From Schmidtea nova (taxonomy: Eukaryota), in assembly GCA_044892505.1 (NCBI GenBank), contig CM097882.1, positions 465,620,001-465,684,000 on the forward strand: a stretch of DNA of 64,000 nucleotides. The letters run 5' to 3'. A program made the position numbers and the translations under genes. The notes under the pieces are model-generated. The model made no database searches. It was not told the DNA's origin and saw only the letters and a program-made list of their open reading frames with translations. Below are positions 32,690 to 64,000 of this stretch, one piece after another. Every line of letters starts with the position of its first letter. The stretch's first letter is position 1.

Positions 32690-33387
32690 TATGCAGTCAA
32701 TCGAATGTAAGTAAGATTTTTAAACGAACGAATATAACGAGGAAGCGACTTTAACGAAAATCTATAAAAACTGTAAGTGCGGAAGTTATCAACGCAAGAA
32801 AAATTTATGCCAGAGAAATGATAATGATTATTAATTCGAGATTATTGTTTTTGGATGAAAGTGGATTTAATTTCCATACTACCAACAACTATGGATATTC
32901 GCCGAAGAACATTGATGCAATCAAGCTCGTACCAGCAAACAGAGACAGAAACATTTCACTTATTACAATTGTGTCACATAGTGGAATCTTAAAATACAAA
33001 TCGTTGGATGGTGCATTTAACAGTGTTGAGTTGATCGCATTCCTTGCCGAAGCAAAAAGCTCAGGAGTGTGTTTTCCCAATTGTGTATTAGTATTGGACA
33101 ATGTCAAATTTCATCATTCTCCTGGCGTAATAAAATGGCTGAATGAGAACGAGGTCGATTACAAGTTTCTTCCCCCTTATAGTCCCGAACTCAATCCTAT
33201 AGAGGAAGTATTTTCTGTAATTAAGGCGAGATATCATACTCTGAGGCCCCTACCTCGTAATTCCAACGACGTGAAATTTAATATTGCGAATGTTATTGAA
33301 AATATGAACGGTGATAATACTTTGATCTTTGAACACTTTTATGAAGATATGCGCAGATATCTTGACTTGTCGTTCCGCGGAGAGTAG
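32690..33387 (+). pseudogene. IS630/Tc1-like DD34E transposase, 5' truncated
   Basis: LFLDESGF, LVLDNVKFHH, FLPPYSPELNPIEEVFS with 34 residues between D2 and E; upstream in-frame VSKIFKRTNITRKRL* contains a stop. Confidence 0.92.
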
Positions 33388-35238: not shown

Positions 35239-35730
35239 TTACAGAATTTTGCAACATGAAAAATTTGATTTGAGGATGGTATGTTGCTTCGATTTAGAAA
35301 GGCAGTCAAGAGCCGCACAAAAACAGCCATCTTCAGAATTTTGCAAATTTTTAAAACATTTTAAAATGTCAGTTTTATCGACTCGACTAAGATTATCACC
35401 CAAAATCATCAAACAAACTAAATACGAATAATTCATCGTTACATGACCAGACATGTAAATCTGGTTTGTGAGATGACAATTACTCGGGAAAAATCCACCT
35501 CGAAATCCCTCTAAACGGCCAGATTGATAATCTAATATTTGCTGCTCATAAATCCAGTCAACTATTTCATTTTTATCTGATTGCGAGATATCATCAATAC
35601 GATTTAACAAATCGAGACCAGATAGAGCAAATTGTAAAATGATAACTCTTGATGTATCATATGATTCAAAAACCGTTGGAATATAACTGACAAACTTTTT
35701 AAAGTACTTGGAAATTAAATCTTGATTCAT
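35239..35730 (-). pseudogene. PGGT1B: Geranylgeranyltransferase type I beta subunit, N-terminal fragment
   Basis: YDTSRVIILQFALSGLDLL, IVDWIY..Q, GFRG, SGHVTMNYSYLVCLMILGDNLSRVDK, LQNSEDGCFCA; homology stops at about 35300. Confidence 0.88.
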
Positions 35731-38875: not shown

Positions 38876-41800
38876 CAATTCTTTACAGTAATTGATCTTA
38901 ACAAAGGATATAACCAATTTAAAATAAAAAAGGAGACAGGAGAAAAATTGCATTTTCAGATTGTAAAGGACTATATGAGTTTAATGTGCTAGCATTTGGT
39001 CTAACCGAAGCACCTGCTACGTTCCAGAGAGGTATAAATTTTGTTTTGCGTGATATACCGCATCCATTACTCTATAGCGATAATATTTTCAAATAGTTTT
39101 CAGGAGCACTTGAAAGATGTGGAAATAGAGTTTAAACTACTAATAGAAGCTAATCTCAAAATAAAACCTTCAAAATGTGAATGGGGAAAATTAGAAGTTG
39201 TTTATGTAGGAAATATTATTTCACGACGAGGGTCCAGAAAATGTAGAAAAGATTAAAAAATACCCAATGCCCAAAAATACGGATCAAGTCAGATAATTTC
39301 TGGAATTAGCTAGTTATTATAGAAAATTCATTAAAAATTTCTCGCATATCGCACAACCTTTAAATATATTGTTGAAAAAGCAGACCAAATTTAAATGGGC
39401 AACGACTCAACAAGAAGCATTTAATAAATTAAAAGAGAGTCTTATTTAACAACCAATATTAAAATGTCCAAACTTCAAAAACCCTTCATACTGATGACGG
39501 ATGCAAGCAATTTCGCATTATGAGCAGTTCTGGGACAGCAAGCAGAAGGCGAGATAGATCATGTAATCGCTTATGCCAGTCTTTCAATAAAACACAATGA
39601 AAAGAATTATTCCACTATTGAAAAAGAAACTTTAGCATTAGTATATGAGATAACTAATTTTTGACAATATTTGGTTGGGAGAAAGTTTATTGTATTTACG
39701 GATCATAACCCATTACAATGGCTAATGAAGCGTAGAGATTCAGCAAGTAAGTTAATCAGAGGGTCAATTGCGTTACAAGAATACGACTTTGAAATTAAGT
39801 ACCGGCCAGGGAAGTCGAACGCAAATGCGGATGCGATGTCGAGAATTCCTGAGGAAAATATTTTTAAAAATGAAATAAATTATGAAAATACCATATTTAT
39901 GGCAATTAAAACTACAAATAATATGAAAGAATTAGAGAAGGACCAAGAAAATGATGTTGGCGTAAATCAATTGCGTAAAAATGCCGTCAAAATAAAAAGG
40001 AAAAGTGACTGGAAGCACATTGCTCCAGAAAAATATAAATATGTTATCCACGATGGCTTGTTAAAATGTGTTAAAAATGAAAATTTATTAATTGTAGTAC
40101 CAACACAACGTCAGACAGTATTACTGTTGTTATATCATGATGGGAAATCACGAGGACATTTAACTGCTCGAAAACACTGTCAAGATTAAAACAGAAATAA
40201 TATTTGGATACGATGGAACACGATGTCAGACAGTAGTGTCTTACTTGTTAAGTGTGTCTAACCAGGAAGAAAAATAAAGGTTCCTCTGAAACCTATGCCC
40301 GTGCCACTAGCACTAATGGAAATGACAGCAATGGACATTGTCGATCCACTACCAGAAACAACTAATGTCAATAAATATATTATTGTTTTTTGTGACTATT
40401 TAACAAAATAGCCAAAAGCATATGCTATGCAAAATCAAAAAAGCGGAATCTGTGGCAAAAATATTTGTAGAAAACCTCATATTTCGGTACGGAGCACCAA
40501 GGAATTTGCTAACAGATCAAGGAACAGACTTTCAAAGCGAATTATATAAATCTATCACCGAATTATTTGGAATTCTAAAACTTAATACATCACCATATCA
40601 CACACAAACAGACGGTTTAGTCGAAAAATTCAATGGAACACTGATCAACATGATATCGTCGTATGTAAACAGAAAACAAAACGTTTAGGATTTGTTCATT
40701 ATACCATGTTTGTTTGCATATGGAAATGCAGTGAATGAAAGCACCGATGAAACACCCTTTTATCTTATGTACTTACGACGAAACAAAATGCCGATTGACT
40801 TAAATTTTCAACCGCCAATATCAAAAAAAAATGGACGTATCCGATTATAAAGTGGTAATGCAGGAAAGACTGCAATCAGTATGACCTTAAGCTGAACTTA
40901 AAATAAGGCATAACCAAGAAGCATATAAAGAATGCTACGACAAACGGGCACATGTACATGATATAAAGTTGGAGACTTGGTATACATAAATGAATCAGAG
41001 GCAGCGAAAGGACTGTCAACAAAGCTACTGCGACCATTTAAAGAGCCATATTTAGTTTGTGATGCAACAGAAACGAATTTAAAATTGCGCCCACAAAATA
41101 CTAAAAAAAAGCTGGAACGATTGCCATTCATGTAAATCGATGTATGAAAGTTACGGTGGAAGAACAGTATCCCCTGAGGTCAAAACCGAATAACGGTGAA
41201 AAAGAAAAAGTAATTTAATAAAAATTTACAAAAACACCACTCAATTAAAATTACTTGAGTAAAACGTTGCTGATTACAACAGTAATGATGATCAATGTTT
41301 TGTGTACCCATTATTAAAAAAGATCGATGTGTATTCAACATGTACCCAAATATTATGGATCTATCATTGCGAGAAATAGAAACTATTTCGAATACCACTA
41401 AAATTAAACTGTAACAAGAATATCCATGTCGCCCGTGAATTATCAATGGATTATAAATACCCTTGGGTAGTAACACAATTATAGTTTAAAGATAACCTGA
41501 CGAAACTCCATGATCTAATATGTGTCAATATATGGACAAAAAGGCTGCAAAATCGTGTATCAATTGAACCAGTATTCCATGAAATTAATGTACATTGGAA
41601 ATCTCATGAATCCCAGCAAGTAAAAACAGTCTTTCAAAATTATGCTATCGATACACTGAACAGCAGAAAACCATTTATAAATTATGTTAATTTAAAATTA
41701 TTTCAGATGTATAACATTCAAATAAAATATTTTGTAAAGTTTTTGTATGAAAGAGGAACTAAGAGTAACAATCAGTGGGTTCTAATCCATTCCAGTCAAC

Positions 41801-43855: not shown

Positions 43856-46742
43856 GCCGTTCGTCTGCGGATAATATGCAGTCGAACGCAGTCGTTTGAT
43901 GCCAAGCTGTTCGGATAAAGAGGTAAAAAGCTGTGATTCAAATTGCGCTCCTCTGTCGCTAATAATTTGTCTGGGAATGCCATATCGTGAAACCCATTCT
44001 GAAATGAAAGATTCAGCGACAATATTTGCTGAGACAGAACGTAGAGGAACAGCTTTACACCATCTTGTCTTCCTGTCTATAATTGTTAAAAGATACGAAA
44101 AACCATTGTTTGACCGACAAGATCAACGTGAACGGCATCAAATTAATTGCCTGTTGGAAAGTGCATGTGCGGTGGTTTAACGTGTCGAGTAATTTTGTCT
44201 GATTGGCATTTCAAACACTGACTATCTCGTCTCATAAAGGGCCAAACGACTTGGTTTCTTAGCAGCTGATAAGTGGCGGTCGAGCCAGGGTGACCTAAGT
44301 CGTGAACTGCACGGAATGCCTGTTTTCGAAGCTCGAATCCAAGAATAGGTCTAAGAGTTCCCGAAAGTGAAGAGTCTAAATCAATGCGGTCTACGTTTGA
44401 TTTATGGGGTTGAAAATATTGTAGATCAGCTTCGGTTGGTTTATTCTCGCAGAGTGGAACTAGTAAACAGGGGTTCCAAGGAGATAGCCTTGGCACTACG
44501 TTAGAGAAAATCAGCTAAAATGTTCTCTTTACCCGCTATGTGTCTGATGTCACTGGTGAACTCGGTAATGAAAGAAATTTGACGTAACTGCCTGGGAGAG
44601 TTATCCTTCATAGTTGTTAAATGAACCAACGGCTTGTGATCAGTGTAAACTGTAGTATATCTACCTCCGAGCAAATTTTTGAAATGTTTAATCGACAGAA
44701 ATATGGCTAAAAGTTCCCGAATGAACGCGGAATATTTGGTTTGAGTTTCGGTTAACTTCTTAGAAAAGAATTCACGAGGTCGAACTATACCATCTTGCAC
44801 CTGTGTTAACACAGCGCTTACTGCGACGTCGGACGCATCCGTGGTTAGACTGAAAGGCAGAGAATACTTTGGGTAAGCCAAAGTCTGAATTGATTCAAGT
44901 GCTTTTTTAGCTTCGATTTCTCTGTCCATTTTATAATATATCGCTTTGATCCCGAACTGTGCTAAGTCAAAGGAGCCAGAATATCAGATATCCTAGGTTT
45001 GAACCTGTGGCAATAATTGACTACGCCTAAAAAGCTGTGAAGCTGTGTGACAGTTTCCAGTTTAGAAAAATTTCTGATGGAATTTAAACGTTCAGTTTGT
45101 GGAGCTATTCCATCGGCGGATAAAGTGTGTCCCAGAAATTTTACACTTGATTGAAAGAATTGACATTTGGAATGATTTATCTTGAGTTGATGTTGCTCTA
45201 AGATTTTAACGAGTTTAGATAGATTCTGTTTATGTGTTTCGGCATCAGGCGATGCGACTAGGATGTCGTTGACGTAGGCTACTACATAATCTAGCCCGGA
45301 TAATATGTGATCGATATGTCGCTGGAATGTTTGTGCAGCGTTCCGTAAACCAAAAGGCATTCGCAGGAATTTGAAGAGACCTGTAGCAGTGATGACAGCT
45401 GTTTTTTGCATATCAGATGGAGCGACAGGAATTTGGTGGTATGCCTTCGTCAGATCGATCTTAGAAAATATTTTGTTACCTGTGAATCTGGCTAACGAAT
45501 CCTTTATAAGAGGCATTGAATATGAGTCGTGCTGTGTGACGGTATTTAAACGACGGTAGTCGCCACATATCCCGAAAGAAGAGTCTTTCTTAGGGACGAA
45601 ATGGATCGGAGAGGCCCAAGGTGAAGAAGATCTTTGGATCACTCCTGCTTGTAACAAATTATCATATTCTGTCTTCAGAAATGTCAAGTTTGCTCCGGAT
45701 ATCGGGCACACTCTCTCTATCTGAGTGGCGGTGAATTCAGAGTAAGGATTTGATGATAGAACCTTTGGTCTAAAGATCTTGTTGTATGAGTGAAGTTATC
45801 ATCGAAAATTCGATTAATGTTGAGTTTGTTAACAAAGTTCGTGAATAGATCGATAGAGAATGTATTGCATTCAGCAGTTTGATTAGAAGCGTCATTTAAA
45901 GACGTGGAATTAATATTGGGATCGATGACGGACAGTGAGCGTTTGTTGCAATCGATGATGATGTTAAAATTTTCAAAAAAGTCGATGCTCAGATCGATTC
46001 CCATTTCTGTAATTACACCCGATCTGACAAATGTGTGCGGAAACTCCTAACCTCTGATGATAATAACATATCCATGGAGTTTTATTACGTGTGTGGTCAC
46101 GCGACTGTGATCTCGGTCGCCTTCGGTCCGTTGATGTAGATCTTGCCTCAAGCTTCTGAACTTTTCTAGTGAGATTTTTGATTGCCGATATAAGAGGATT
46201 AAAAGAATGATCCGTAGAATTTTTAGTTTTCGTGGGTGTTGTTACTGAAATTTGGTTGCAGAAACCTGTATTTGGTTCTCGAGAAACCTCGGCTATTTTA
46301 TCAGCCATATTGGCGATATCGGCGAGTGAAGTCGAGTTGGAAACTGCTAAGATGGCTTGTGTTTGTTGAGGCAAGTCAGAAAGAAAAAAGCGACAAAGAA
46401 TAGCGTCATCTTGAGTGATGCCTTGCTGTAGCGATTCGAGGTTGTCTATGGCTTGCTTCAGGAATTCGGATGGTCGTTAGGAACTTAGGTGTTGAGTCTT
46501 GAAATATTTACAAAATATTTCTGCTTTTAGTTCCCTGAAGTTATTGATTATGGCATTTTTGAGGGAAGTAAAAGGATCAACTTCGGCAAAAAGGTTTGGT
46601 AAGAGATGCGCGAGTTAAGAAAGGAGTTCGATGGGGAGAAACGAGACAAGTTGGTCGAACTTTTGCTGTGAAGTCGCGATGTTTCTGGCGTGGAAGGATC
46701 GTTCAAAAATAAATAACCATGCGTTCGGTGATTCGTTTACAT

Positions 46743-47254: not shown

Positions 47255-47273
47255 GATCCTGCTACTGACACCA
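47255..47273 (-). promoter_or_regulatory. Putative primer binding site (tRNA-Leu-like)
   Basis: TGGTGTCAGTAGCAGGATC one base after ...ACCACA; resembles the common TGGTGTCAGAAGTGGGAT PBS. Confidence 0.65.
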
Positions 47274-47274
47274 T

Positions 47275-47447
47275 TGTGGTATTTGCGTGGTTCGCCTCCA
47301 TTGCTAATTTTGTTTTTGTTATACGTCAATGCATTTGTTTGCCCCCGCAGGAAACAGGCATCAAGATTTCGAATTGCCGTCATAGCTTGTGGGTGAATTG
47401 CAAACAGCATTAAAGCCGTATTCTTTTTGTTAAACGTAATTGTAACA
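47275..47447 (-). repeat. Putative 5' LTR
   Basis: TGTTACA...ATACCACA bracket upstream of the PBS; no second LTR in window to confirm. Confidence 0.4.
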
Positions 47448-47496
47448 TTTACGTTAACCATCATGTTATTGTTTGCATTGATCCTTTCCTCGTTAT

Positions 47497-47707
47497 TTCG
47501 ACCGTGCATCATTAGAGAGTATATTAATCGCCTAACAATTGGACATTGTGCTTGTCTAAATCGTTTTGTTTGATAACGACCAGCAGACTGGGGAATTATT
47601 TTTGCATATTTTCCACTATAATTAATGCAATCTGCCATTGACAGATCGACAGCGCGAACATCATCAGTGCTCCATTTAATGAAAAGTTTAAAGTCAGGCA
47701 TATTCAC
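47497..47707 (-). pseudogene. RPS5: 40S ribosomal protein S5 (uS7) N-terminal fragment
   Basis: [47 protein letters not shown]; diverges after GRNN; substitutions at conserved positions. Confidence 0.92.
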
Positions 47708-47924
47708 AGTTTAACACAGAACACAAAATTATTTATATAAATAAATTCAACAATGCAAAAGCTATATTTTAAAATACAACAAAATTAAAACAAGCGTTTT
47801 TTATCTTTTCAGTTTTTTATACAATTTCTTTTTTATATAATAAAATATATATTCAATATACTCTTAATATATATTTAATTTATATTTAATATAAATATTA
47901 TATTTATTTATATATTAATTATAT

Positions 47925-49805: not shown

Positions 49806-52560
49806 TAATAAACCCCAGAGTTTGACCAGGTTCTCGTCTGACACACATTCCCGACTGCGCTCTTTGTTGTTGGTATCTATGGCCGAGTGTCTTCCACGAA
49901 GCAATCACAAATCAACATATCTTGTGGGATCAAAACGTGTGAGTCCGGGTCCAACTAATCTTATAAATAAAAGCGAAGATACAGTTGTTGTCTTCAATGA
50001 AGCTCATGACGGGGTGATGATAAGATTCATCTGTAAAAACCCTCGCTCAGCTTCACTTGAAGAAATTGGGATTGTACTGGGGGCAATTTTCAAAGGAAAA
50101 AGTTTATCAGGAACACTTTTTTCGGTGATATATTCACGAAATCCACGAATCATTATTCTTTCGTTTAACTATAATCTTGTTGACAAGTTCCTTATTTCTG
50201 CTTCGCCAAACGTCAAGTGCGTATCAATATTGTTGGGCCAATGTTTTAGATCAAGCACTCGAGCCGAGTATGCCAAACTAGCATCTTCACTGGACAGCAA
50301 TCTTTGTTCTATTGATTCTCTTAGCTTTTTGAAACGCTTTCACATCAATTGGTGGATCATTTTTACTTTCTTTTTTGTGAAGTGAAACTCCTCTGAAAAA
50401 GTTATTATCTGCAGCAGTGGTCGCAATTTTATAATAAGGGCCTGGAATGATTTGTCGTTCTTCAAAAACCTGTATAAGAGCCTTGATCTTTTAATCTGCT
50501 TTGTAAAGGTTCATGTCGCGCTTTTGCAAATCTAAACTTAACTCTGACAGCTCTTGTAGGGCATCGCATATCAATCCGAGGTCTAATACGAATTTAGTAG
50601 AAGTAATCTTCCGCTGTAAACCTTCGTATGTGCATTGATCTTTTTTGTCTCAGGTTGGATAATGTTTTGTTTCGTCAAAATGCTTAACCAAAACTTCGTA
50701 ATCTTCCCAAACTGCTAAAACTAAACGGAAACTGGATACCACCCATATCGTGCTCAACATCCTCCCAATTTTTAACAACTCAGTTTGTAACAAATTAGCA
50801 CATATTTGCAATTCTCTTGAATTTTTTGGCAAAGGACACACAGTTTATCAATGAATGCTTTCAATCGGTTGATCCCCGAAACTTGTTTTATGGTATCATC
50901 AACGGAGAGTTCCAGTCGGTGATTTGTACAATGCCAAACCAGAACAGATGGAAACTTTTCTTTCAGCAATTTCTTGACTCCAGTTTTGCACCCCAACATC
51001 ACAACTGCTCCATCACATGCAAGATAAATCAAATTTCTTTTAAGAAATTCTTCTGTTATCCCATAGGAATGAAGGCAGTTTAGTAATAAATCAAAAATTC
51101 CCGTTGTGGTTACACTTTCGAGTTCTACCAAATCCAAGAATAAATTCACTGGTGAGTTCATTCCACTGTCCGCAAGACAAACACGAATGTACACAATTAA
51201 AGTAGATTTCTGGCTAGGCGTAGTTGATTCATCGATAATCAATGAAATTTTATTGTCCCACCTTATTATTTCTTTGATCAATTTTATTTTCATTTCAGAA
51301 CTTATGTGATTCACTAAATTGATACATGCATTGGTTGAATGGACTATATGGATCACCTCAATTCCATTCAGTTCTTGCAAATCAATTTCAGATTCAAAAT
51401 TATGAAACGATTTTTTTTCTTTGGCCACTTTATATGCCGTACGAAAAATCTTTGCAGTTACGACTTTTTCAGGAGATAATGCCTTTAAAAACAGGTTCTC
51501 GATAGGTGCCGTATCGGCTTCGGCTAGTATCTTAAGTGCAGCTTTATGTGTCGCAGTTTCCTTATGATCGAACAATTTTTTCCGTAATGACATAAGCTGA
51601 TGTTTTCAATTAATATTGAAGTAGGTTATTTGATTGTTAGACCATTCTTTAGATATCTTCATTCAAATCTTTGCCTCGACTCTGAGGTTACCAACTTTTC
51701 GGCACGGAAAACAACCAAAGTTTTTATCATGGATAGATAGCCAGTTATACTTTGTACAGAACTCGTTTTTTTGATCCAAAGTCCAGCATGCATGCCAGTC
51801 AGCATCATCAAGTTGTAATTGCTCAATAGCATCAGATGATCCAAGAACGCTATTTGAATGCATTATTTCCAATGGGTCCGTTATGGTTTCTTCTGTTACA
51901 CCAACTTCTGCCCTTATTTCTTCGCACAATCTGTTTTTTTATTTACTGGAAATTCGTTTGATTGCGAAGCAGAAAAGAAATCAAAAATCTTCATTTTCAA
52001 GTGAGATAAATTAATTATATACCAAGTAATCAATTATAAATTTTAATTTTGTAAGTTTTAATTTTTTAACTTGTTTTTAATCTTCTATGCATAACGTTTA
52101 AAAACACGTGGCCGGAAATGAGCTATCAATTAATGACGTCTTATTAAGAGTGTGCTTATAAATTGTGGCTGTCTGGATTCGTTTTGGTGGCAGGTGCTCG
52201 TTTCTATGTGGAAATATGAAATAAATGTACGCCACATAGGAACGGCATGCAAGCACTCTGCACAGCGTTAATAACAAACATTACCTTATATGAGTTATAC
52301 ATAATTGTGCACTAATAGGCACAATGCGAATATAATTATTATATTACGTTAAAACATTTTTGCTATTCGTATTTAAGTGCTAATTTATAGATAAAAATGT
52401 AAAATAAAACATTCATATTAATAGTATAATAAAAAATAATTATAATTTAAATCACTTAAAAGTTACTATTAATTATATTTTATTTTTTATAAAATGAAAA
52501 AGGTGCCGGTACGCCGTACCGGCGCATACCGTCACAAAAAAAAAAAAAACAATAGCCGGA
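49806..52560 (-). mobile_element. hAT transposon (ZNF862-like transposase), decayed
   Basis: IIDESTT, LACDGAVVMLG, WHCTNHRLEL, EGFSQMNLI, FIRLVGP; terminal block aaggtgccggtacgccgtaccggc..cacaaaaaaa at about 52495-52560. Confidence 0.88.
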
Positions 52561-53853
52561 TCACAGTTCTAGTATTGATATCGGATCACATTCGATTTCA
52601 TAGTCCTCATAGGCGTCGTCGCAGATCCAGTCCTGGACCTTCCCGGCTTCGTTCTTCGCTATTCCGTCCGGTCCATAGATGTTCGGATTCGGTGCCCAGC
52701 ATAAGTGGGACTTATACATAACTATTTCATGTATGCTGATAGTCTCTGTTTATTTGGATTGGGTTCTCCGTCCTTCTTGGAATTTGAATGGAAGATTTAG
52801 GTATTCGGTAGTCTCTCCGGTAGCGAGGTTTCGCGAGCGATCTAACATAATATATCCAAGTTGATGGAATTCTGGTACCCTGATCTTATTGAAAAAAATC
52901 ATCCACCGGGTACATTGTCAGTGTCGTGCTTTACGGCAAACCATTTTGGTCTCGGATCCGTCGCCTCGCCTGAGGGCTATAAAGATCCTCTTTCGTAACG
53001 TAATTCATCTTTGTGTTGAGGTCCAAGATTTTTAGATCTCAACGTGCACTGGTGTAGACTATCGTATATAAAAATAAGATCAAGTCTTTTTTGAAAAATT
53101 TATTCAATAATAAAATTTACCAAATTTAAAATCAAAGGTTATCAATTACGCTTTCAAATCAAAAATTATCAAATACACTTTCAAAGCTTCACACTGTTTT
53201 ATTTAAAGGGTATTTTTTGCGTGTCCTATTGTGTGCTTGTTATTTTGTGAATGTATTATGTTTATTTTAATGATAACAATTCCGTGTTGAACGTTTTTGT
53301 ACTGTTCGTAAATTTTAAGTTCTCGCAGGATTACCCTTTGAGAAAGTTTGTTTCGCTAAATTTTTATTGAAATTGAATTTCAAAAAATTGTGGGCAAAAT
53401 TTAAAAATTTTCCCTTCTTTAAATACTAAAATTTTTCGTACTCGTTATTAACTTTAATTTCTATATTTTTAATTTCCTGTAATTATTCTCCAGCTGCTGT
53501 TAATCTAAAAATTTAAATTTCCTGTATCAAGCAAGCAATTAATTTTATATTCTAGTATCGAGCAAATGATTTCCTGTATTCAGCAATTAATTTTATATTC
53601 TAATTTATTAATAATATCTACATAAAATAACTTATTAATACATTTTATAATAGATCACATAAATAAAATAAAAATAAATAAATAATATATACATTCCAAT
53701 AAAATAAATTATTAATACATTTTTTACCACATAAATAAAAACACATTCATACAATATCTAAAATTATAAGAATCACAATAATATCAAATATTTACACCAC
53801 GAATAATGTCAATTGTCAAAACTAAATGTCAAATGTCGAATGTTAATCAAATA

Positions 53854-55953
53854 TTAAATATCAAATGGATGTTGATATCCTGGTTGGTGCTTGGATTGAT
53901 TGTGCACTGGGTACTGATTGATATTGGGTTCTGTTTCTTTTTTAATATTGGTTGCATCGACAGGCTCTGCATAAATATTCACTCTGTATTTGTTGCCCCC
54001 CACACTATAATTTTCTGATAGGAGGAATGTATTGATGGGCTTACCTTCATCATCCAACATTCCTCCCCGGGCCGTCAAAGTAATGTCCTCATTTCCTTTG
54101 TCACACAATATTAAATCAATTCTTTTCTCTTTTATTTGAATTGTTGTTTTTCGAAATCCATTTTTTATCGCAAGGTTTATCGTCTCCTCGTGCTCAATTT
54201 GTCTTCCAAAATGAGTGCAGAGATCTTTTTCTGAGACATACTTTTTGTCTTTGTCTATTATGAAGTCTGATTCTTCTGGTTCTGTCCAGTCGGCTAACAT
54301 TTCAACTTTTGGTTCTGGTCCGATATCCTCTTCCATTATGTTGTATTTACTACTTGTTGATGGTTCTTCACTATCTTCTTCCATTTTGATGTCGTTACTG
54401 CTGGTTGAAGGTTCTTCTATGTTTTCATCTGCTGAGAAATATTCATCGTCTATATCACATTCGTCCATTCTTTCATATAGAATATTTTGAATTTTGGGTT
54501 CTGCTTTGATTTCCCTAGTTGGAGCGATAAGTGGTATTTCTTCTTTTATGATCATGAGTTCATCGTCGTCACTGTCCATGAGTTCTTCCATGAATGACTT
54601 TTTTGGTTTGTAATGATTGGTTTTTGTTAATTCCCCATGGGACGGCTCCATGCCTTCTCCATCTTCATATTTACTTTCTATCTCACCTTCTGCTTCGCTC
54701 TCTGTTTCGTTTTCGAATATTGCTTCTAGTTGTTCTTCTCCATTTACTTGTTTCCTTTTAAGAAGTGTTGCGGAATCCCATTTGACAACTTCTTCCCATT
54801 TATTTTCTGTGATATCGTAGATCACTTTTAATAACATTGTGGTGATCTTTGTTGAGAATGGTTCTGGTTGTCTCAATATATCATTTAACTTTTTATCTTT
54901 ATGCCAACTTTTATGGTAATTGATTACCTGGTAAGCCAAATTTGATATTTTTATTTTTGGTGGGGCCACGTTTTTTACAAAAGAACACATAAATCGATCC
55001 TGTGCCATTTCTCTTATGCCCATAATGTTGTCCAGATCTATCGTCAATAGTTTTAACTTATCTATGATGTTGAATCCAACTATGATCTTTCCATAGAGAA
55101 TGTTTCGAATTTCATTTAAGGCTTTATATTCGTCTTCATTTCCAATTATGTTTTCTTTTGTAGCTTTAGTTTTTTCCGTGTAGAATTTTTCTACTTTCGT
55201 TCTTGGGGTGATGAATTTGTTATACAGAATTGCTCCTTTTCTGCTTCTGATACAAATTTCCACTGGTCTGAGATTTTTGTTTATATCTTGAATTACTTTT
55301 ATATCCACCATTACAGTTAATGAATGCCTTTCTTCTGTCGTTAACTCTTGATTCGTGAATGATATCTTCTGATTGATCATATCTTCATTTATTTGTAGGA
55401 TTGAATGTATTGGGTTTAATTTTATGAACGGATTTGGGATTGTCGGGATATATAGCACTTCGATTGCTATCACACATGGTAGGTTGTTCATCTGCACTGT
55501 CAACTCATTGAAATCGTTTGACATGCTTCTGTCTTTTCTTATTAACTTGATAACTGCTGAACAGTTGCTTGTGACAATTAACGGGATTTTATTTTGACAT
55601 ATTGCAACTTCTGTTTTTGTCATGTGGAATATTAGTCTGTGAGGGATTCTCTGGTTTTTTGCAACTTCTTTGTCGACGTTTTGGTATTTGTCGAAGGTTC
55701 CAATAAGCTCCCTGAGTTTCACTCTTCGGGCCTCATTGAATTTTATCAGATGCATTTCCCGTTCTTCTATTTCGACTTTCATGTCGTTTGGGATACATAT
55801 TTGATTTGGGAAACTGCGAATTGTAATTGGGGTTCCATCCGTACATATCTTGTTCTGTAGATTTTTGTAAAAACTCATGTTTAGTTTGTTTATAAAACAA
55901 GTATATTTCTGGTAGGTTCTTGGTTGATTGAAATGAGGTTGATTTTGATTCAT
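53854..55953 (-). CDS. 699-aa accessory protein with REX4/ISG20-like (DEDDh-fold) pseudo-exonuclease and acidic region
   Basis: Residues about 212-385: VMVDIK..RPVEICIRSRKGAILYNKFITPRTKVEKFYTEKT..IRNILYGKIIVGFNIIDKLKLL..IREMA; catalytic residues mostly lost. Confidence 0.75.
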   Translation of the reverse strand: MNQNQPHFNQPRTYQKYTCFINKLNMSFYKNLQNKICTDGTPITIRSFPNQICIPNDMKVEIEEREMHLIKFNEARRVKLRELIGTFDKYQNVDKEVAKNQRIPHRLIFHMTKTEVAICQNKIPLIVTSNCSAVIKLIRKDRSMSNDFNELTVQMNNLPCVIAIEVLYIPTIPNPFIKLNPIHSILQINEDMINQKISFTNQELTTEERHSLTVMVDIKVIQDINKNLRPVEICIRSRKGAILYNKFITPRTKVEKFYTEKTKATKENIIGNEDEYKALNEIRNILYGKIIVGFNIIDKLKLLTIDLDNIMGIREMAQDRFMCSFVKNVAPPKIKISNLAYQVINYHKSWHKDKKLNDILRQPEPFSTKITTMLLKVIYDITENKWEEVVKWDSATLLKRKQVNGEEQLEAIFENETESEAEGEIESKYEDGEGMEPSHGELTKTNHYKPKKSFMEELMDSDDDELMIIKEEIPLIAPTREIKAEPKIQNILYERMDECDIDDEYFSADENIEEPSTSSNDIKMEEDSEEPSTSSKYNIMEEDIGPEPKVEMLADWTEPEESDFIIDKDKKYVSEKDLCTHFGRQIEHEETINLAIKNGFRKTTIQIKEKRIDLILCDKGNEDITLTARGGMLDDEGKPINTFLLSENYSVGGNKYRVNIYAEPVDATNIKKETEPNINQYPVHNQSKHQPGYQHPFDI

Positions 55954-56415: not shown

Positions 56416-59400
56416 TTATACCAATGTGGATTTTGTATATTCACCTGGTATATATTTGCCCAAATGGAAATGCCCTGGTACATTTCTGACCAGTCGGCTC
56501 CGATACCGCTGCCTTTTCCATTTGTACTTTTTGTAAATTTGTACGCTAGTTATTAAAGCTAAAACTGCTAATGCTATTATTGATGTTGTGATGACATAAT
56601 AAGGCCAATGTGGCTTTTTATCCTCTTTACGAAATGCTTGTAGTTCCTCTAAGTTATGTATCACTATTGGTCTTCCTTGCCTTATTTTGATAGGTTCTTG
56701 TTTTTGTTTTTTGGCATTGTATTGTTTTTGGAATTTGGCTATTCCAGTGCTTGTTGGTATTTCGTTTGTAAGTGGTGTGGTATTTAGTATATTATCTGAT
56801 GTCGTTGTTGTGCTTTTTATTCTATCGAGTGTTTTTGTTATGTTATGGTTTTTTGTTATATTCTTGGGTAATTGTTCTGTTTTTATTTTTTTGCATCTCC
56901 ATGTTGTTGTATCTGTGTTTCTCTGTATGCAGATTTTGTATATTGTATTAGGTGTTAGTTTTGTGAAATTAATATAGTTTCCTCTTTCGATTTCGTTGGT
57001 TATTCTGTCGTCTTTTCCTTTTATCATCTTTGGGTTTTTCCCATTCGTTGTTTGCATGTATAAATCAATTACTCCTCTATTTATGATAAATGCTCTAACT
57101 TCGTTTGTTGATATTTTTATTAATACTTTGTCAAATTCTATTGTTTCGGTTGAGCCAACAAATGTTATGATTGTTAAGAAGATAGCCGATATTATTAGTT
57201 TGTTATGAGATCTTAGATTATACTTGTGGGGTTTATCTATCGTGACCTCGGCTTCCGCCAACTTGCATCTGTTGACATGTACTACTATTGGATCCTCGTT
57301 TTTATGCTTTTGTAAGTGTAAATTCTCATTTATTACTTTTACTACCTCATATGGACCTTTATATGGTCTTGCTAGTTTTGTTGTCTTTCCCTTTCCTACT
57401 TGTGGTGACATAAGTCTAACCTTATCACCTACTTTAAAGTTGTGTGGTTTACTATTTTTGTCGTAGTCGGCTTTGTACTGTTCTTGTCTATATTTGACTT
57501 TTAGATTGGCTACTTTATACACTTCTTGCAGTTTTTCCTGCATTAGTGTGACATAATCTGGTGCATCTAAATATTGTGATACTCGAGGTTCAAATATTGT
57601 ATCTATTGGTGTTGCTGGTTCTCTTAAAAACATTAAATAATACGGTGAATACCCTGTTGTTTCGTTTGGAGTGATATTATGAATGTATGTGCATTGACTT
57701 ATGTATTCGTCCCAATCATTTTGATTTTTTCCTACAAAAACAGCTAGTCTGCTTAGTAATGTCCCATTAAATCTTTCTACTAGTCCATCAGTTTGAGGGT
57801 GATACGCTGTTGTGTTGATCTTTTGCATGTTAAAAATATTAGCTACTCGTTTTATTAATTCACTAGTAAAATTTGTTCCTTTATCTGTTAATAATCTTTT
57901 GGGTGTGCCTATCTTGAAAATAATTTTTTCTATAAGCAATTTAGCAACTGTTTCTGCTGTTTCGTCTTTTGTTGGAAATGCTTCTGCCCATCTAGTAAAA
58001 TAATCACTAAATACTAGTATATGTTTATTCCCATTAATTGTAGTAGGTAATTTACATAGAAAATCCATTGCACATAGTTCCATTGGTGATGTCGTTGCTG
58101 GAATGGGATGTAACGGCGCTTTTGTTTTTGTACCTGTATTTTTTCTTGTTGCACATATTGTACACGCGTTACACCATCTCTTAACATCTTTCTTTAATTC
58201 TTCCCAGTAATATTTTTGTAATAATCTACTTGCTGTTTTTCTAGATGATAAGTGACCTCCTAATGCTCCATCGTGATATTGTAGTAGGAGTATTTGTCTT
58301 AATTTCTGAGGTACTACTATTAGTTGCTTACCATTGAAATCTTCTATTACTACTAATTTCTTTGATATTTTATACTTTGAATTGTTTTCTTTTCTGATTT
58401 CATTTTTTATTTTACTGATCTCTGGGTCTTTCATCTGTTCCTCATATATATCGATTGGTTTTTCTGCTACTAGTGCAAATATTTCAAGTGCTCCTAATTC
58501 TGGTATTCTTGATAGTGCATCTGCGTTTTTATTTATTCTACCTGGTTTATATATAATTTTTAGGTGCATGTCTTGTATTTTCATTGCCCATTTAAGTAAT
58601 CTACTTGATGTATCTTTATGTTTCCATAAGCCTTCTAATGGTTTATGGTCAGTTCTTATTATCACTTCAGTCCCATATATGTATGGTTTGAATTGTTTTA
58701 GGGCGAATACTATTGCGTAACATTCTTTTTCTATTGTTGAATACCTCAGCTGTGCTCCTTTTAATGTTTTACTGGCATATGCTATTACGTAATCTTTCCC
58801 TTTTTCTTCTTCTTGGCCTAAGACTGCTCCTACGGCTTTCCCGCTGGCATCCGTCATTACTATAAACTGTTTTTCAAAATCTGGGTATCTTAACACTGGT
58901 GCTGTTATCAATCTTTCTTTTAGTTTATTGAATGCTTCTTGATGTTCCTTTGTCCACTTCTTTTGTATCTTGTTAACTTTGCTGTTCATTTCTTGTACTA
59001 TTAACACATTTTTGCATTCTCCTTTTGTTCTAATTCCCTTTGTCAGTTCTATTATCGGTGATGCTATCTTTGCATAATCTTGTATGAATTTACGATAGTA
59101 CCCTGTTAGACCTAAAAACCCTTGTACTTGTTGTACTGTTTTTGGTATTGGGAATTTCTTTACAACTTCTATTTTTTCTGGATTTGGTTTTATCCCTTCT
59201 ACTGTAACTATATGCCCTAGAAATAACGCCGAAGGTTCTGCCCATTTACACTTAGTTGGTTTAATTTTAATTTTTGCTTTTCTTAGTCTCTCGAGTACAT
59301 TTGTTATATCTTTTAAGTGTTCCTCAAATGTTTTTGATGATATTAGTATATCATCCATGTAAACTGCGCAATGTTGTACATTTACTAATATTGTGTTCAT

Positions 59401-60705
59401 TAGGCGCTGAAATGTAGCTGGTGCGTTAGTTAACCCGAAAGGTAATCGTGTATACTCATATAAACCATCCTCGATAACAAATGCTGTTTTTTCCGCATCC
59501 CCTTCCTCCATTTGAATTTGCATATATCCCTTATTTGCGTCAATAACTGAAAAATACTTAGCATCCCTAAGTTTATCGTATTGCTCTTGTGCTTTTGGGA
59601 ATGGGTATGAATCTTTTACTGTTACATCATTTAATTTACGATAGTCAATGCACATTCTTATTTCTCCGTCTTTCTTTTTAACGGGTACAATGGGTGATGC
59701 CCACTGTGAAAAACTCTGTTTTATTACACCTGCATCGTTTAGTTCTTTGATTTGTCGTTTTATTTCCTCTCTTAACTTGTATGGTACGCTGTATGGTCTT
59801 TGTTTTATTGGTCTCGCATTACCTGTATCTATTACATGTTTGATTATATCGGTATCCCCTAGATCAAATTCGTGTTTTGCAAAAACATCACTATATTTAT
59901 CTATCAATGTTTGTAGTTGTGCTTGTTGTGTTATTGTTAAGTATTCATTATTAATTTTCACTTTGTCATATGATTTTATATTATTTATCTTACTAGGTTC
60001 GACTACTCCCTTGCCGTTATTATTCATCACGCTTATCTCACTGACTTCGTACGTTTTTTCTAATTCACCTTTGAATAATTTTCCCAATTTCGTACCTTTG
60101 TGTATTTTAACATTACTTTTTTCATAATTTGCTATTCTCAATGGTATTATTCCCTTTCTCGGAATTACGCATTCATTGATTAGCATTATATTCTGATTTT
60201 GTATAATTGCCGTTTCTGGCTCAAAAATAAAAGTGTCCTCACTTTTGATGTTAACTTTTAAGGGAATTATATGATCGCATTCATATTCCAATTCAAATGC
60301 TTCTAATGCAACAACTTCTGTGAACTTGGATTTATGTTTAATTGCTTTTCTCTTTATCGTATTATCTGTTAAATCTATAATGCAATTTTCTAACTTGTTG
60401 AGTATATCGATTCCCAATATACATATGCTATTACATTCTTGCACCACTTTAAATATGTGGTTTATTACATGTTCTGGTGTTTCGACAATTAGTTCTATGT
60501 CTCCCTTTAGTGGAATACGATGTGCTGATAACGATACTACTTTATCCGTTGTGCTCATAATATTTCTTTTTTGATCATCTGTCAGTTGATCTTCTCTAAT
60601 TAAGGATGTTGCTTCTCCTGTATCTACTAATGCATTTATGATTATATTGTTTATAATTATTCTAAGTCTTGGTCTTGCTTCGTTTGCTGCATCTAATCGT
60701 TCCAT
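56416..60705 (-). CDS. pol: Pol polyprotein PR-RT-RNase H-IN plus C-terminal type I membrane protein
   Basis: ALVDTGEA, QWASPIV, CIDYRKLN, LPFGLTNAPATFQR, YMDDILI, MTDASG, HDGALGGH..CxxC, AMDF, TDKGTNF, QTDGLVER, YKGPY; last 261 aa carry two hydrophobic segments. Confidence 0.95.
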   Translation of the reverse strand: MERLDAANEARPRLRIIINNIIINALVDTGEATSLIREDQLTDDQKRNIMSTTDKVVSLSAHRIPLKGDIELIVETPEHVINHIFKVVQECNSICILGIDILNKLENCIIDLTDNTIKRKAIKHKSKFTEVVALEAFELEYECDHIIPLKVNIKSEDTFIFEPETAIIQNQNIMLINECVIPRKGIIPLRIANYEKSNVKIHKGTKLGKLFKGELEKTYEVSEISVMNNNGKGVVEPSKINNIKSYDKVKINNEYLTITQQAQLQTLIDKYSDVFAKHEFDLGDTDIIKHVIDTGNARPIKQRPYSVPYKLREEIKRQIKELNDAGVIKQSFSQWASPIVPVKKKDGEIRMCIDYRKLNDVTVKDSYPFPKAQEQYDKLRDAKYFSVIDANKGYMQIQMEEGDAEKTAFVIEDGLYEYTRLPFGLTNAPATFQRLMNTILVNVQHCAVYMDDILISSKTFEEHLKDITNVLERLRKAKIKIKPTKCKWAEPSALFLGHIVTVEGIKPNPEKIEVVKKFPIPKTVQQVQGFLGLTGYYRKFIQDYAKIASPIIELTKGIRTKGECKNVLIVQEMNSKVNKIQKKWTKEHQEAFNKLKERLITAPVLRYPDFEKQFIVMTDASGKAVGAVLGQEEEKGKDYVIAYASKTLKGAQLRYSTIEKECYAIVFALKQFKPYIYGTEVIIRTDHKPLEGLWKHKDTSSRLLKWAMKIQDMHLKIIYKPGRINKNADALSRIPELGALEIFALVAEKPIDIYEEQMKDPEISKIKNEIRKENNSKYKISKKLVVIEDFNGKQLIVVPQKLRQILLLQYHDGALGGHLSSRKTASRLLQKYYWEELKKDVKRWCNACTICATRKNTGTKTKAPLHPIPATTSPMELCAMDFLCKLPTTINGNKHILVFSDYFTRWAEAFPTKDETAETVAKLLIEKIIFKIGTPKRLLTDKGTNFTSELIKRVANIFNMQKINTTAYHPQTDGLVERFNGTLLSRLAVFVGKNQNDWDEYISQCTYIHNITPNETTGYSPYYLMFLREPATPIDTIFEPRVSQYLDAPDYVTLMQEKLQEVYKVANLKVKYRQEQYKADYDKNSKPHNFKVGDKVRLMSPQVGKGKTTKLARPYKGPYEVVKVINENLHLQKHKNEDPIVVHVNRCKLAEAEVTIDKPHKYNLRSHNKLIISAIFLTIITFVGSTETIEFDKVLIKISTNEVRAFIINRGVIDLYMQTTNGKNPKMIKGKDDRITNEIERGNYINFTKLTPNTIYKICIQRNTDTTTWRCKKIKTEQLPKNITKNHNITKTLDRIKSTTTTSDNILNTTPLTNEIPTSTGIAKFQKQYNAKKQKQEPIKIRQGRPIVIHNLEELQAFRKEDKKPHWPYYVITTSIIALAVLALITSVQIYKKYKWKRQRYRSRLVRNVPGHFHLGKYIPGEYTKSTLV

Positions 60706-60981
60706 TGTTTCGACTTCTAAGCTATAACAACCATATATCTTTTTAGGTTCACAATGACAATTCTTGTTTTCTCTAGGAATTTTGATTTCTATATTTTCTT
60801 GTAGCTCTTTTAGTTGTTCTCTTTGGTTTTCATATAGTCCTTGTTGTGGTACATTTCCTTCATGTGATATATGCGCTTTAATTATTTCCTCATCGTTTTC
60901 ATCATCTACCAGTAATTGCCTTTCTTCATTCCTTTGGACTTTTATTAAACGTATTTCCTTGTCGTGTTTCGCCGTAATAAG

Positions 60982-62763
60982 TTATTTAGCTATAAATGGG
61001 CACAAACATGCTAATAATTTATATGAATTTCCAAATACTTGTTTTAGCTGTCTCAGTGATACTAGAGAAGAACATATCATTTTTAGTAATGCAACCGTAT
61101 AATATATACCTAAGATTGTAGAAAACATGTTTCCAAGGACTACAAAGTATCCCCATATGCTATATAGTACTTTATATGCTACTTTTTTGAAGTATTCTTT
61201 TGATAATAACACATCAAAGTTGTAATTTCCTCCGTAACTTCCTTCGATAACTCTGTTAACCATTATTGAAAGTACTCTTTCTTTTTCGTTTGGAAATAGC
61301 ATGTGTTTTCTTGCACTTTCTATAGCTTCTCTCGTATATATACCATTACTGTCCATATCGTTGATTTCTTTAAACTCTAATCTTTTTTCTAGCTCTATGA
61401 GTTCTAATTTGAATGGTTTCATTGCCTCTTTTCTATCTGACATAGATATCCACATTTCGTCATTTATTTTGTATAATGGGTCTAATAGGTTAGTGCATTT
61501 TTCTATTTTTCTCGGTATATATGTTTTTTCTGTTAATATTCTAGTAATTGGTTGAAGGTATACCCTTTCTCCTTTATATATTACCGGTAATTCATTAGTG
61601 CACTGATTATTTGTTGCTAACGATACACTAACAGGTTTACATTGAAATGTCTGTATCACTTCTCCTACTATCCTTGCAAATGTTCCTTCTTCTGAGAAGA
61701 TTATTGGTGCCATTAAATCTGGGTTTGTTACCGCCACTGCCATTTTTGTCCTCAATATTTCTCTGTTGAGTTTGCAATCGCTCATAATTGTTGATTGATA
61801 TACTTTGTCTAATTGTACTAGTTGGTTATGATAGAAAAAATCGATTTTATTGTTGAAGTATGATGCAAGTTTGACGTCGAATTTATTTACTTTTTGTTTT
61901 GCATCTTTGACTTCCTCTTTGCTTATGTATATCCCTTCATAATTAGTTTGTATTATTTCCTTACCACATTTTACACTTTTCCTTTTACTAACAAACCTCA
62001 TTGCTTCGTTTTCAGATTCTGACATAAATATTGTTGGTGTATCTTTTTCTTGTACAATTGTTGTTTTCCTTTTTTGATCTCTCACCCTTTTTGAGTCTAC
62101 TTCTGTGAACTGTTTTCCTTTGATTTCCCTAAATTTTAATGATTTTAATTTTGTTAACTGACAATCGTATTTATCTATTTTATATATTAGCATTGATTCT
62201 CCTGTATCGCAATAAGATTCTTCTAATGTACAAAATTTGTATATCATCATTTTCTTTGAGCTGCTGTCGAATGATGCTTTGAACTTTCTCAGTTCTACCA
62301 TGTAGTGTCTCCTTACTACAACATTACTCAGTTTTTCGCCCCATATTGTATATTCTCCTCCTTCACAATATCCTCCTTTTGATGTCCATCCCACGACATT
62401 TATATCTTGTCTCATTTTTGCTCCTATCCTTGCTTCTAGTTCTATTCCTTTATGACCGCTATATTTTACTTTCTTTGTTTTAAATGCATATTCACACTCT
62501 ATTGGCGACAATATTACTGCTTCGGGTGTCCACGTAGGTTTTAACACTGTTCTTGCCCCAACATGACATATATATGCTTCCTCCTGATACTTTACTATGC
62601 ACTCTTTAGCCTCTGTATGAATAAAGTCTGATTCTTGATAAACATGGAATATTTGAGGCTCTGACATGATTAATTTAGTTGGATTTGCTTCAGGGCAATT
62701 TTCAACATCCAACAGTGTGTATTTTTGTCCCCACTTTGGATTTTGACAATCATATGCTACCAT
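60982..62763 (-). CDS. env: Envelope glycoprotein, chuvirus/Jingchuvirales-like (class III fusion candidate)
   Basis: N-terminal AYDC, LLDV..C, Cys-rich ectodomain, GEVIQTFQC..V..CTNELPV..G..YLQPITRIL, C-terminal hydrophobic helices. Confidence 0.8.
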   Translation of the reverse strand: MVAYDCQNPKWGQKYTLLDVENCPEANPTKLIMSEPQIFHVYQESDFIHTEAKECIVKYQEEAYICHVGARTVLKPTWTPEAVILSPIECEYAFKTKKVKYSGHKGIELEARIGAKMRQDINVVGWTSKGGYCEGGEYTIWGEKLSNVVVRRHYMVELRKFKASFDSSSKKMMIYKFCTLEESYCDTGESMLIYKIDKYDCQLTKLKSLKFREIKGKQFTEVDSKRVRDQKRKTTIVQEKDTPTIFMSESENEAMRFVSKRKSVKCGKEIIQTNYEGIYISKEEVKDAKQKVNKFDVKLASYFNNKIDFFYHNQLVQLDKVYQSTIMSDCKLNREILRTKMAVAVTNPDLMAPIIFSEEGTFARIVGEVIQTFQCKPVSVSLATNNQCTNELPVIYKGERVYLQPITRILTEKTYIPRKIEKCTNLLDPLYKINDEMWISMSDRKEAMKPFKLELIELEKRLEFKEINDMDSNGIYTREAIESARKHMLFPNEKERVLSIMVNRVIEGSYGGNYNFDVLLSKEYFKKVAYKVLYSIWGYFVVLGNMFSTILGIYYTVALLKMICSSLVSLRQLKQVFGNSYKLLACLCPFIAK

Positions 62764-63920
62764 TGCATTGCCCCCTTGATTAAATCTAATAACAAAGTGA
62801 TTATGACTATTACTATGGAGGTTATCGATTTACTCTCTGTCTTTGGTTTTACTGTTGCTCTCTTTATTAATTGTTTTATTACATTATCTGTATCACTCTC
62901 TTTATTCGTCGTATCTTTATCATATAATACTTTCCATCCTCCTTTCTTTTTTATCCATGGTATTGCCTCTACTTTCAATCTTTTAAACATCATTGTTGCT
63001 ACTTTTTCTAATTGCTCTTTTGGATTTTCCTTTATGAGCTTTTTATATCTTGCGGCCAAGTATGCCATGGCCGTTATTATTTTATCTTTATCTATCCCTG
63101 TATTAAACAGGATTTTTAACACTGTTTTTTCATTTGCTTCCTCTGTAGCTAGTTCTTTAGTATCCTTTTTAATTAACATCATCCTTTCAGTTATATTTTC
63201 AATAAGTACTGTTGGCTTTGTTTCTGGAAATAGCTTAATATTCATTGCTTTTATTACTTCTTTTATTTTGTTTACGTCATTATTATCGTCTTGATACTCT
63301 GGTTGTTCATGTTTATGTTGATTTGCAATCTCTCTTAATCGTTCTGCTGTCTTCCTATTCTCCGATTTTTCTATTATTTCTGATTTTCGAGGTCTTCCTC
63401 TACCTCGTTTTGATGTTTCTGCATCTTTTGTTTTTGCTTCCTCAGCTATTCTTTCTATTGTTTCTTGTAAGTTACTATACTTTTCATCTATAGGTTTAAA
63501 TAAAATTTCTTCATCCATTACTGATTTCTTTGTTTCGCTAGGTGATTTATCCCATAGCCTAAATAATCTATCAAAATCGTTTTCTTCATTTATACTCAGC
63601 TCAACCGACGGTACTGGCGTCACTATTTCATCGATCATTTGTTTTTCTACTGTGGCTACCACAATATTATCACTTACTGGGTTTATCCCATAATCGATTA
63701 AGTACTCATCACTTAATAATTCTATTCCGTTAAAATATAATTTTATTACATCTTTCTCTCCTATGGTTCCTGGCCATTTGGCTCTTACCATTCGTTTTAA
63801 TTTGCTCACTTTAGTGCAAGGATGCATCTTTTGTTTAATACTAAAAAAATAATTATCATTTGATTCAATCGTTACATTTAGTGTTTCATGCAATTTTTCA
63901 TTTTTTCTTATATTCTCCAT
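62757..63920 (-). CDS. Ubl, AT-hook, Bcl-2-like domain and hydrophobic tail (probably the N-terminal part of the polyprotein)
   Basis: IKLYFNGIELLSDEYLIDYGI (Ubl), KRGRGRPRK, LFNTGIDKDKII...PWIKKKGGW (BH1/BH2 spacing), SITSIVIVIITLLLDL. Confidence 0.75.
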   Translation of the reverse strand: MENIRKNEKLHETLNVTIESNDNYFFSIKQKMHPCTKVSKLKRMVRAKWPGTIGEKDVIKLYFNGIELLSDEYLIDYGINPVSDNIVVATVEKQMIDEIVTPVPSVELSINEENDFDRLFRLWDKSPSETKKSVMDEEILFKPIDEKYSNLQETIERIAEEAKTKDAETSKRGRGRPRKSEIIEKSENRKTAERLREIANQHKHEQPEYQDDNNDVNKIKEVIKAMNIKLFPETKPTVLIENITERMMLIKKDTKELATEEANEKTVLKILFNTGIDKDKIITAMAYLAARYKKLIKENPKEQLEKVATMMFKRLKVEAIPWIKKKGGWKVLYDKDTTNKESDTDNVIKQLIKRATVKPKTESKSITSIVIVIITLLLDLIKGAMQW

Positions 63921-64000
63921 AACATTTCAACATCTCTTTTATTTCTATTTCTAATTCAAATACTCTCGTTACATTTTGTCTCTTTACCATCATTGGTAAT

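Follow-up and report, generated by a model that had tools for sequence, protein, structure and literature searches.

The stretch of Schmidtea nova DNA analyzed here (GenBank assembly GCA_044892505.1, contig CM097882.1, positions 465,620,001 to 465,684,000; 64,000 nucleotides, referred to below as the window) contains near its end a minus-strand retroelement in which the gene for a chuvirus-like envelope glycoprotein (Env) lies ahead of pol. This raises the question of whether Env and the Pol enzymes belong to one continuous reading frame or are kept apart by a stop codon that is sometimes read through. An original prediction, made from the sequence of the window, had placed env and pol in the same frame with a single TAA and 92 open codons between them, and these coordinates held on the minus strand. 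The glycoprotein frame (62829-60982, stop to stop, 615 amino acids, aa) is in phase with the pol frame (60981-56416; 1,521 aa), with 92 sense codons between the TAA and position 60706 and the first methionine of the pol frame at 60705. The open reading frame (ORF) upstream of env (63926-62757) is in a different frame from the glycoprotein. Comparison with other copies showed that env in frame with gag and pol is the normal state of this family and that the interruptions seen in the window are damage to one copy. We further consider it quite probable that Gag, a predicted class III Env, and Pol are made, in that order, as one membrane-threaded polyprotein.

The insertion is a Ty3/gypsy long terminal repeat (LTR) element of about 13.8 kb, family copies measuring 13.8 to 14.0 kb. 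It has two TG...CA LTRs, a 4-bp target duplication at both flanks, a primer site and a polypurine tract, and its pol order is protease (PR), reverse transcriptase (RT), RNase H, and integrase (IN), with gypsy-type domains by Pfam; the gypsy class is assigned from domain types and order. The partner 5' LTR, found when the neighboring 40 kb was inspected, sits 1.76 to 2.81 kb past the window end, and the LTR pair differs at 5 of 1,046 bp (99.5% identity). The window copy is thus a recently inserted, since broken, member of a young, high-copy retroelement family.

Continuity of the gag-env-pol frame across the family

The TAA between env and pol was present in the window copy only, 1 of 143 copies, and a sense codon occupied that position in 29/29 of the nearest copies. 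The prediction had also held that the homopolymer run at 62771-62775 separates the upstream ORF from Env, and the frame was indeed open there in 27/29 nearest copies. The window-type run occurred in 6/147 copies. Two other run-break copies were examined, and because they had 1 to 2 of the window's 32 minority variants in common with it and none between themselves, the run-break form has arisen more than once. The original account lacked a third break, which lies near 63,910 and separates Gag from the SUMO-like/Bcl-2 part; here the frame of 29/29 nearest copies differs from that of the window. (gag and the 5' LTR are outside the window, 1.6 to 2.8 kb past its end.) The totals of 143 for the stop site and 147 for the run site were obtained from exact-flank patterns and are lower bounds. 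The copies compared in detail were chosen for likeness to the window or for top Env scores. In the comparison with the 29 nearest copies, indel tallies below position 60,550 were noise from diverging copies and were not used; all three break sites are outside that stretch.

Unbroken frames of 3,054 to 3,082 aa hold 27 of the best 78 Env matches (of 3,742 candidates), the 615 aa of the window being the shortest of the 78. The family's ORF1 (about 3,070 aa) has the order Gag, SUMO-like, AT-hook, Bcl-2-like, signal, Env, transmembrane segment (TM), PR, RT, RNase H, and IN. Sister families in the same genome have the identical order in one frame of 3,393 to 3,401 aa at 6/6 loci, with 37 to 39% identity in Env and 51 to 52% in RT; the LTR pair was missed at 3/6 of these loci. 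Among database relatives, 16 of the 150 listed were scanned, chosen by length, and Env was followed by an in-frame protease or RT in 10 of them. Of the remaining six, four stop at Env or inside it, one of BEL/Pao type has Env behind DUF5641, and one matched in Env alone. No stop at the env-pol junction was found in the sister families or in the database relatives examined. Together, these results show that the family frame is continuous and that an env preceding pol in the same frame is the family norm; the copy counts show that Env and Pol are not separated by recoding.

Predicted fold of Env and a probable membrane-threaded polyprotein

The assignment of the glycoprotein to a chuvirus-like class III type was borne out by several comparisons. 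The Env frame matched the Pfam family PF24664 (Monjiviricetes_fusion) at E = 1.5e-82, and an HMMER scan returned 1,163 relatives, against 1 from a word-based protein search. An AlphaFold model built with 108 aligned relatives had a mean pLDDT of 91 and a pTM of 0.70, superseding a single-sequence model (pLDDT 32). With this model, chu-like virus glycoproteins were the top Foldseek matches among viral models (BFVD; 9.9e-42), and the top matches in the PDB were all herpesvirus gB (5.7e-14; TM-score about 0.40). VIA-align gave herpes simplex virus gB a Z of 10.2 (root mean square deviation 8.1 over 422 residues) and four further gB chains Z > 8, followed by Bourbon virus GP and Chandipura virus G. 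A profile search of PDB sequences with Env likewise gave 33/33 matches to gB, all weak (best E = 0.018). The prediction that Env is a class III fusogen of the gB/G/GP64-type fold is supported by these models. By hydropathy, its TM lies at about 61128-61072 and is followed by a Cys-bearing cytosolic helix. One relative, the Env-Pol polyprotein P0007, has a database entry as a hypothetical protein from a Flavobacteriaceae metagenome bin; most likely it comes from animal DNA within that bin.

Env was under constraint while the family spread. Variants shared by at least two of 30 copies comprised 3 non-synonymous and 21 synonymous changes (ratio of non-synonymous to synonymous polymorphism, pN/pS, 0.04), whereas private variants comprised 34 and 25 (pN/pS 0.34). 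This contrast (Fisher p = 2e-4) therefore indicates purifying selection on Env during family spread, at a level of constraint close to that of RT and IN.

Ahead of the N-terminal [YF]DC motif of Env, a hydrophobic stretch was present in 11/11 relatives. Small residues at -3 and -1 before the motif occurred in 10/11 relatives, at 6/6 sister loci, and in 26/26 readable family copies (29 examined), against a background of 12%. The pattern of the signal-peptidase site originally proposed for the end of the upstream ORF is conserved in these sets. The stretch occupies the tail-anchor position of the Bcl-2-like domain and, judging from its placement, likely doubles as the internal signal of Env. Internal signals cut by signal peptidase at the endoplasmic reticulum (ER) are a feature of flavivirus and alphavirus polyproteins. 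By the same route, signal peptidase would cleave the hydrophobic stretch after its insertion into the ER, so that the Gag-SUMO-Bcl-2 part would stay cytosolic and Env would face the lumen. The Env TM would bring the chain back to the cytosol, where the element's own protease would free PR, RT-RNase H, and IN, and a second signal after the integrase would direct another, small membrane protein to the lumen. Env would then trimerize and fuse enveloped particles with neighboring cells, and the element could spread from cell to cell, into stem or germ cells. Recoding would be unnecessary, and Gag, Env, and Pol would come out 1:1:1 except where RNA processing or protein turnover shifts the ratio.

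Several points weigh against the polyprotein model. The signal site was assessed from hydropathy and the -3/-1 rule. Env was modelled as a monomer, which resembles gB only loosely (TM-score about 0.40; deviation 8 to 12 Å). N-glycosylation sequons are absent from Env in 27/27 readable copies, against about 2.7 expected from composition (P about 0.06); relatives that were checked have 1 to 4, and all 85 stand-alone relatives have at least one. The detailed copy set, picked by likeness to the window or by Env score, leans to intact copies. Finally, particles require Gag in large excess over Pol, and a 1:1:1 output would be surprising in that light.

This last point bears on a possible, if somewhat unlikely, arrangement in which the single frame is kept but the ratio is set by RNA processing, with spliced or early-ended transcripts adding Gag or Gag-Env and ORF2 having its own message. 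Particles normally require excess Gag, and copia-type elements splice to get it. ORF2, set off by a 460-bp spacer and in a frame of its own, must reach translation by some other route, which favors such processing. However, no direct support for it was found, Tf1-like elements with a single gag-pol frame are known to adjust the ratio post-translationally, and RNA processing would supplement the polyprotein model rather than replace it. Sequence contigs from four runs of one study span the element; they are of unclear kind and silent on splicing.

It is also conceivable, but quite unlikely, that Env is kept for an intracellular task such as membrane anchoring or intracellular budding and that the element never passes between cells. 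The lack of N-glycan sites and of any visible furin-type site in the family's Env would fit such a role, as would the tie of Env to Gag and Pol in one chain. However, the whole ectodomain is retained, including 14 cysteines of which 10 are kept in at least 90% of the 108 relatives, and the constraint on Env is close to that on RT and IN. Moreover, the furin site of gB-type Env is not always conserved according to Chary and Hayashi (eLife, PMC13524379).

That the breaks in the window are assembly errors and the copy intact is very improbable. Two of the three are indels in homopolymer-like runs, and the run form recurs in 6/147 copies with few variants in common, as such errors might. The stop, however, is a substitution, one of 13 private to the window in 5,200 columns, and the LTRs differ at 5 sites, as in real post-insertion decay; moreover, the family-level conclusion is the same whether the breaks are real or not. 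Lastly, the suggestion that TAA-C is a programmed leaky stop setting the Env:Pol ratio can be dismissed with near certainty: although TAA then C is a known weak termination context and the frame runs on for 1,521 codons past it, the stop is confined to one copy instead of being kept across copies, is one of the 13 private substitutions, whose rate is in keeping with that of LTR change (5/1,046), is absent from sister families and relatives, and stands against long unbroken frames in the family.

Post-integrase segment and ORF2

Behind the integrase, ORF1 continues into a segment predicted to be a second type I membrane protein, which occupies the usual env position. Signal-like and anchor-like hydrophobic stretches follow the integrase in 4/4 relatives long enough to show them, a fifth ending at the integrase, and a C-terminal TM was present in 6/6 sister-family copies. 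The FN3-like part is a lead taken from language-model features only (ESM Atlas fn3, 0.90). The segment had no relatives by sequence, no Pfam family, and no PDB sequence match; it aligned poorly with the sister-family tails (21 to 24%), and its shared variants gave no purifying signal (7 non-synonymous and 2 synonymous in 11 copies; p = 0.44). These three properties weigh against a conserved role for the post-integrase protein.

The domain in ORF2 was scored as RNase_T by the ESM Atlas (0.93), the same list including an arenavirus nucleoprotein cluster (0.87), and the window ORF2 had no Pfam match. A sister-family ORF2 that aligns with it matches ISG20L2 at E = 5.8e-7. An active DEDDh enzyme has D-x-E, D, and H...D; in the window family alignment is limited to the first Asp and the region of the ExoII Asp, and most catalytic residues are lost. 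In two sister families (L056:5587-7035 and L066:5444-6850), the exonuclease is largely intact: D-x-E and H...D are kept and Glu replaces the ExoII Asp. Shared variants of the window-family ORF2 gave a pN/pS of 0.11 (p = 0.001). The ORF is catalytically eroded yet constrained, and these sequences therefore suggest a non-catalytic role, perhaps in RNA binding.

One unlikely scheme would make these elements two-glycoprotein retroviruses. The post-integrase protein, cut from the polyprotein end, would be the attachment or triggering partner that a gB-type fusogen requires when it stands alone, and the ISG20-like ORF2 (active in the sister families, a dead decoy here) would act with the Bcl-2-like domain to blunt RNA sensing and cell death. 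If true, this would explain how gB-only errantiviruses enter cells, which PMC13524379 gives as unknown. Should the post-integrase protein indeed partner Env, these elements would serve as a simple model for the targeting and triggering of a gB-type fusogen and for retroelement spread in animals with abundant adult stem cells. Neither a membrane protein after the integrase nor an ISG20-like ORF was found described for such elements in a search that lacked most subscription papers, Repbase, figure panels, and most supplement rows.

Relation to known elements and other features of the window

The original prediction implied that a gypsy element with env before the protease would be new. It is not, since Arkhipova and Yushenova (2019, PMC6431247) report an env lying in frame after the Bcl-2 domain and before the protease in planarian Burro elements, which also have a SUMO-like domain, and call this the first such case, and PMC13524379 describes GAG-ENV-POL gypsy elements with gB-type Env in Nematoda, Bryozoa, and Platyhelminthes. 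The layout is thus already published, and what is added here is one family and no new concept. The family is compact, very young, and present in high copy number, and both its LTRs and its primer tRNA are defined. The window element works like a Burro, and its place is among the flatworm GAG-ENV-POL gB-type errantiviruses; by size and accessory domains it is not Burro proper.

As in the GAG-ENV-POL gB-type errantiviruses (PMC13524379), env is between gag and gypsy pol, and a predicted gB-type ectodomain, whose cysteines follow the flatworm C1a pattern by hand comparison, lies between a signal/TM and a TM. The family has uninterrupted frames and many near-identical copies, the window copy being broken three times. 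Smed_errantivirus_3 and its relatives 1-6, as listed there, are alike in gypsy pol, in gB-type Env upstream of pol, and in being planarian and multicopy, with listed spans of 14.5 to 18 kb. The Env domain I-II segment of Smed_errantivirus_3 is identical to the window Env at 175/246 positions (71%, hand count), with 8/8 cysteines in register, a kinship that suggests a planarian-type host. Three copies are listed for Smed_errantivirus_3, whereas the window family has at least ~145. LTR and tRNA type are unlisted for the six planarian elements in the parts of that paper covered, whereas both are defined in the window family (tRNA-Phe); those parts also leave Bcl-2, a post-integrase membrane protein, and an exonuclease ORF unmentioned.

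The Burro/GYPSM1 giant gypsy elements of planarians (PMC6431247) resemble the window family in joining Gag, a SUMO-like domain, and a Bcl-2-like domain in one polyprotein with an in-frame env that precedes the protease. They exceed 30 kb with polyproteins of 4,873 to 5,140 aa, whereas the window family has 13.8 kb and about 3,070 aa. No Pfam match to the MATH, BIR, or ankyrin accessory domains of Burro was found in any frame of the window element. The same text reports matches of Burro env to mononegavirus glycoproteins and ties it by HHpred to gypsy Env/F-type proteins, whereas the window Env is predicted to have a class III fold; a class III rather than an F-type fold is thereby supported for Burro-type env. 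Burro RNA rises upon PIWI loss, according to Li et al. (2021, PMC8532177).

Other systems resemble the element in part. Nematode non-canonical metavirus endogenous retroviruses (Sacco et al. 2022, doi 10.1099/jgv.0.001739, as cited in PMC13524379) have a flipped env/pol order and an RNA virus glycoprotein captured by gypsy, but they belong to another phylum, and PMC13524379 places GAG-ENV-POL elements in separate pol clades. Rotifer Juno/Vesta gypsy elements (Rodriguez et al. 2017, PMC5408684) have an extra DEDD-family exonuclease ORF downstream of pol, as here. Their ORF3 is RNase D-like, DEDDy, and in place of env, whereas the window ORF2 is ISG20/REX4-like, DEDDh, alongside env, and eroded. 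BEL/Pao elements with a chuvirus-like glycoprotein (Anakin) have the glycoprotein family PF24664 in common with the window element, the DUF5641-plus-Env relative P0099 being an example. In BEL/Pao, Env follows the integrase end on a BEL/Pao backbone, whereas the window element has gypsy pol and Env before the protease. Membership of the window element in BEL/Pao was ruled out by its gypsy-type pol domains and the position of Env ahead of the protease.

In 10 further whole copies of the family, the 4-bp duplication and two LTRs were present in 8, one LTR match was found in 1, and the 3' end was ambiguous in 1. The LTR segments compared were 97.4 to 100% identical, some copies having identical segments. 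The middle of the LTR (about positions 206-611) is strongly variable among copies that are 99% identical in coding parts, which suggests fast turnover of the regulatory region. The primer site corresponds to the 3' end of tRNA-Phe(GAA), at 15/15 bases plus CCA, in 12/13 genes of one array. This array has at least 13 tandem genes spaced 240 bp apart, of which one has an AAA anticodon (L067, G000:C1:567191710-567194732).

Table 1. Features of the element within the window (positions are those of the window)
Feature	Position	Strand	Basis or remark
3' LTR, 1,046 bp, TGTTG...CAACA	53014..54059	-	LTR pair comparison; identical 4 bases at either flank
ORF2	53854..55953	-	First Met 55953; open from 56211; ends within 3' LTR; ISG20/REX4-like DEDDh domain ~55314-54831, then acidic tail
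Polypurine tract	54060..54068	-	Purine run adjoining 3' LTR
Post-integrase ORF1 segment, predicted second type I membrane protein	56416..57195	-	Hydropathy; 4 N-glycosylation sequons
Parts of post-integrase segment	57195-57139 signal-like; 57138-56857 FN3-like (lead only); 56598-56542 TM	-	Serine/threonine-rich stalk before TM; short tail and stop after it
Integrase	57262..58314	-	HHCC zinc finger, rve core, SH3-like C-terminus; Pfam PF17921 4e-19, PF00665 6.7e-10; motifs seen
Reverse transcriptase and RNase H	58570..59682	-	YMDD at 59361; Pfam PF00078 7e-36, PF17919 4e-38
Conserved protease-RT spacer, dUTPase-like by position in Burro	60022..60324	-	Sister-family homology, E 1e-9 to 1e-11
Aspartyl protease	60388..60681	-	DTG at 60624; Pfam PF00077 1.9e-5
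Nonsense lesion, TAA then C	60982..60984	-	Stop in 1/143 flank-matched copies, window copy only
Env, predicted class III (gB/chuvirus G-type) fusion protein, 593 aa	60985..62763	-	Pfam, model, Foldseek
Hydrophobic stretch after Bcl-2-like domain, predicted internal Env signal	62769..62825	-	Hydropathy 2.2
Homopolymer frame break, five C on + strand	62771..62775	-	Splits signal-like stretch from Env in window copy
Bcl-2-like domain, BH1/BH2 region	62934..63134	-	Canonical BH1 motif lost; Pfam PF00452 2.2e-6, under curated cut-off
AT-hook	63381..63410	-	Pfam PF02178 E = 0.055-0.11; motif RGRPRK
SUMO/ubiquitin-like domain	63681..63875	-	Pfam PF11976 E = 0.015 (weak); homologous in sister families
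3' end of Gag-bearing frame and third frame break near 63,910	63901..64000, running past window	-	Break in window copy only

With regard to the remaining domains of the polyprotein, gag, just outside the window, has one CCHC knuckle (PF00098 in copy L031), and PF03732 (Retrotrans_gag) was matched in a sister-family Gag homologue. In the PDB, 37/37 matches of the Bcl-2-like part at E <= 0.1 are Bcl-xL (best 0.012); the purifying signal in shared variants of the SUMO/Bcl-2 part was weak and non-significant (p = 0.12). No dUTPase match was found for the protease-RT spacer. Relatives P0002, P0003, and P0152 have more than one aspartyl-protease-like domain after Env, and P0152 (4,844 aa) has up to 7 protease-like stretches, with ankyrin repeats and C2H2 fingers, between Env and RT.

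Elsewhere in the window, other transposon remains lie at 23672-27764 (+), 39665-40186 (+), 44504-46476 (-), 32755-33384 (+), 3220-4059 (+), and 50772-51605 (-). They include broken gag-pol frames in which no env was seen, a DDE_3 transposase piece, an RT fragment, and one remnant with no Pfam match that we take to be a hAT-like transposase piece. Host-like frames at 28335-29897 (-), 35242-35748 (-), and 47255-47710 (-) comprise a ubiquitin-like sequence, TPR repeats, and a prenyltransferase beta-subunit exon; the TPR repeats are presumably OGT-like, and a decayed piece is presumably ribosomal protein S5-like.

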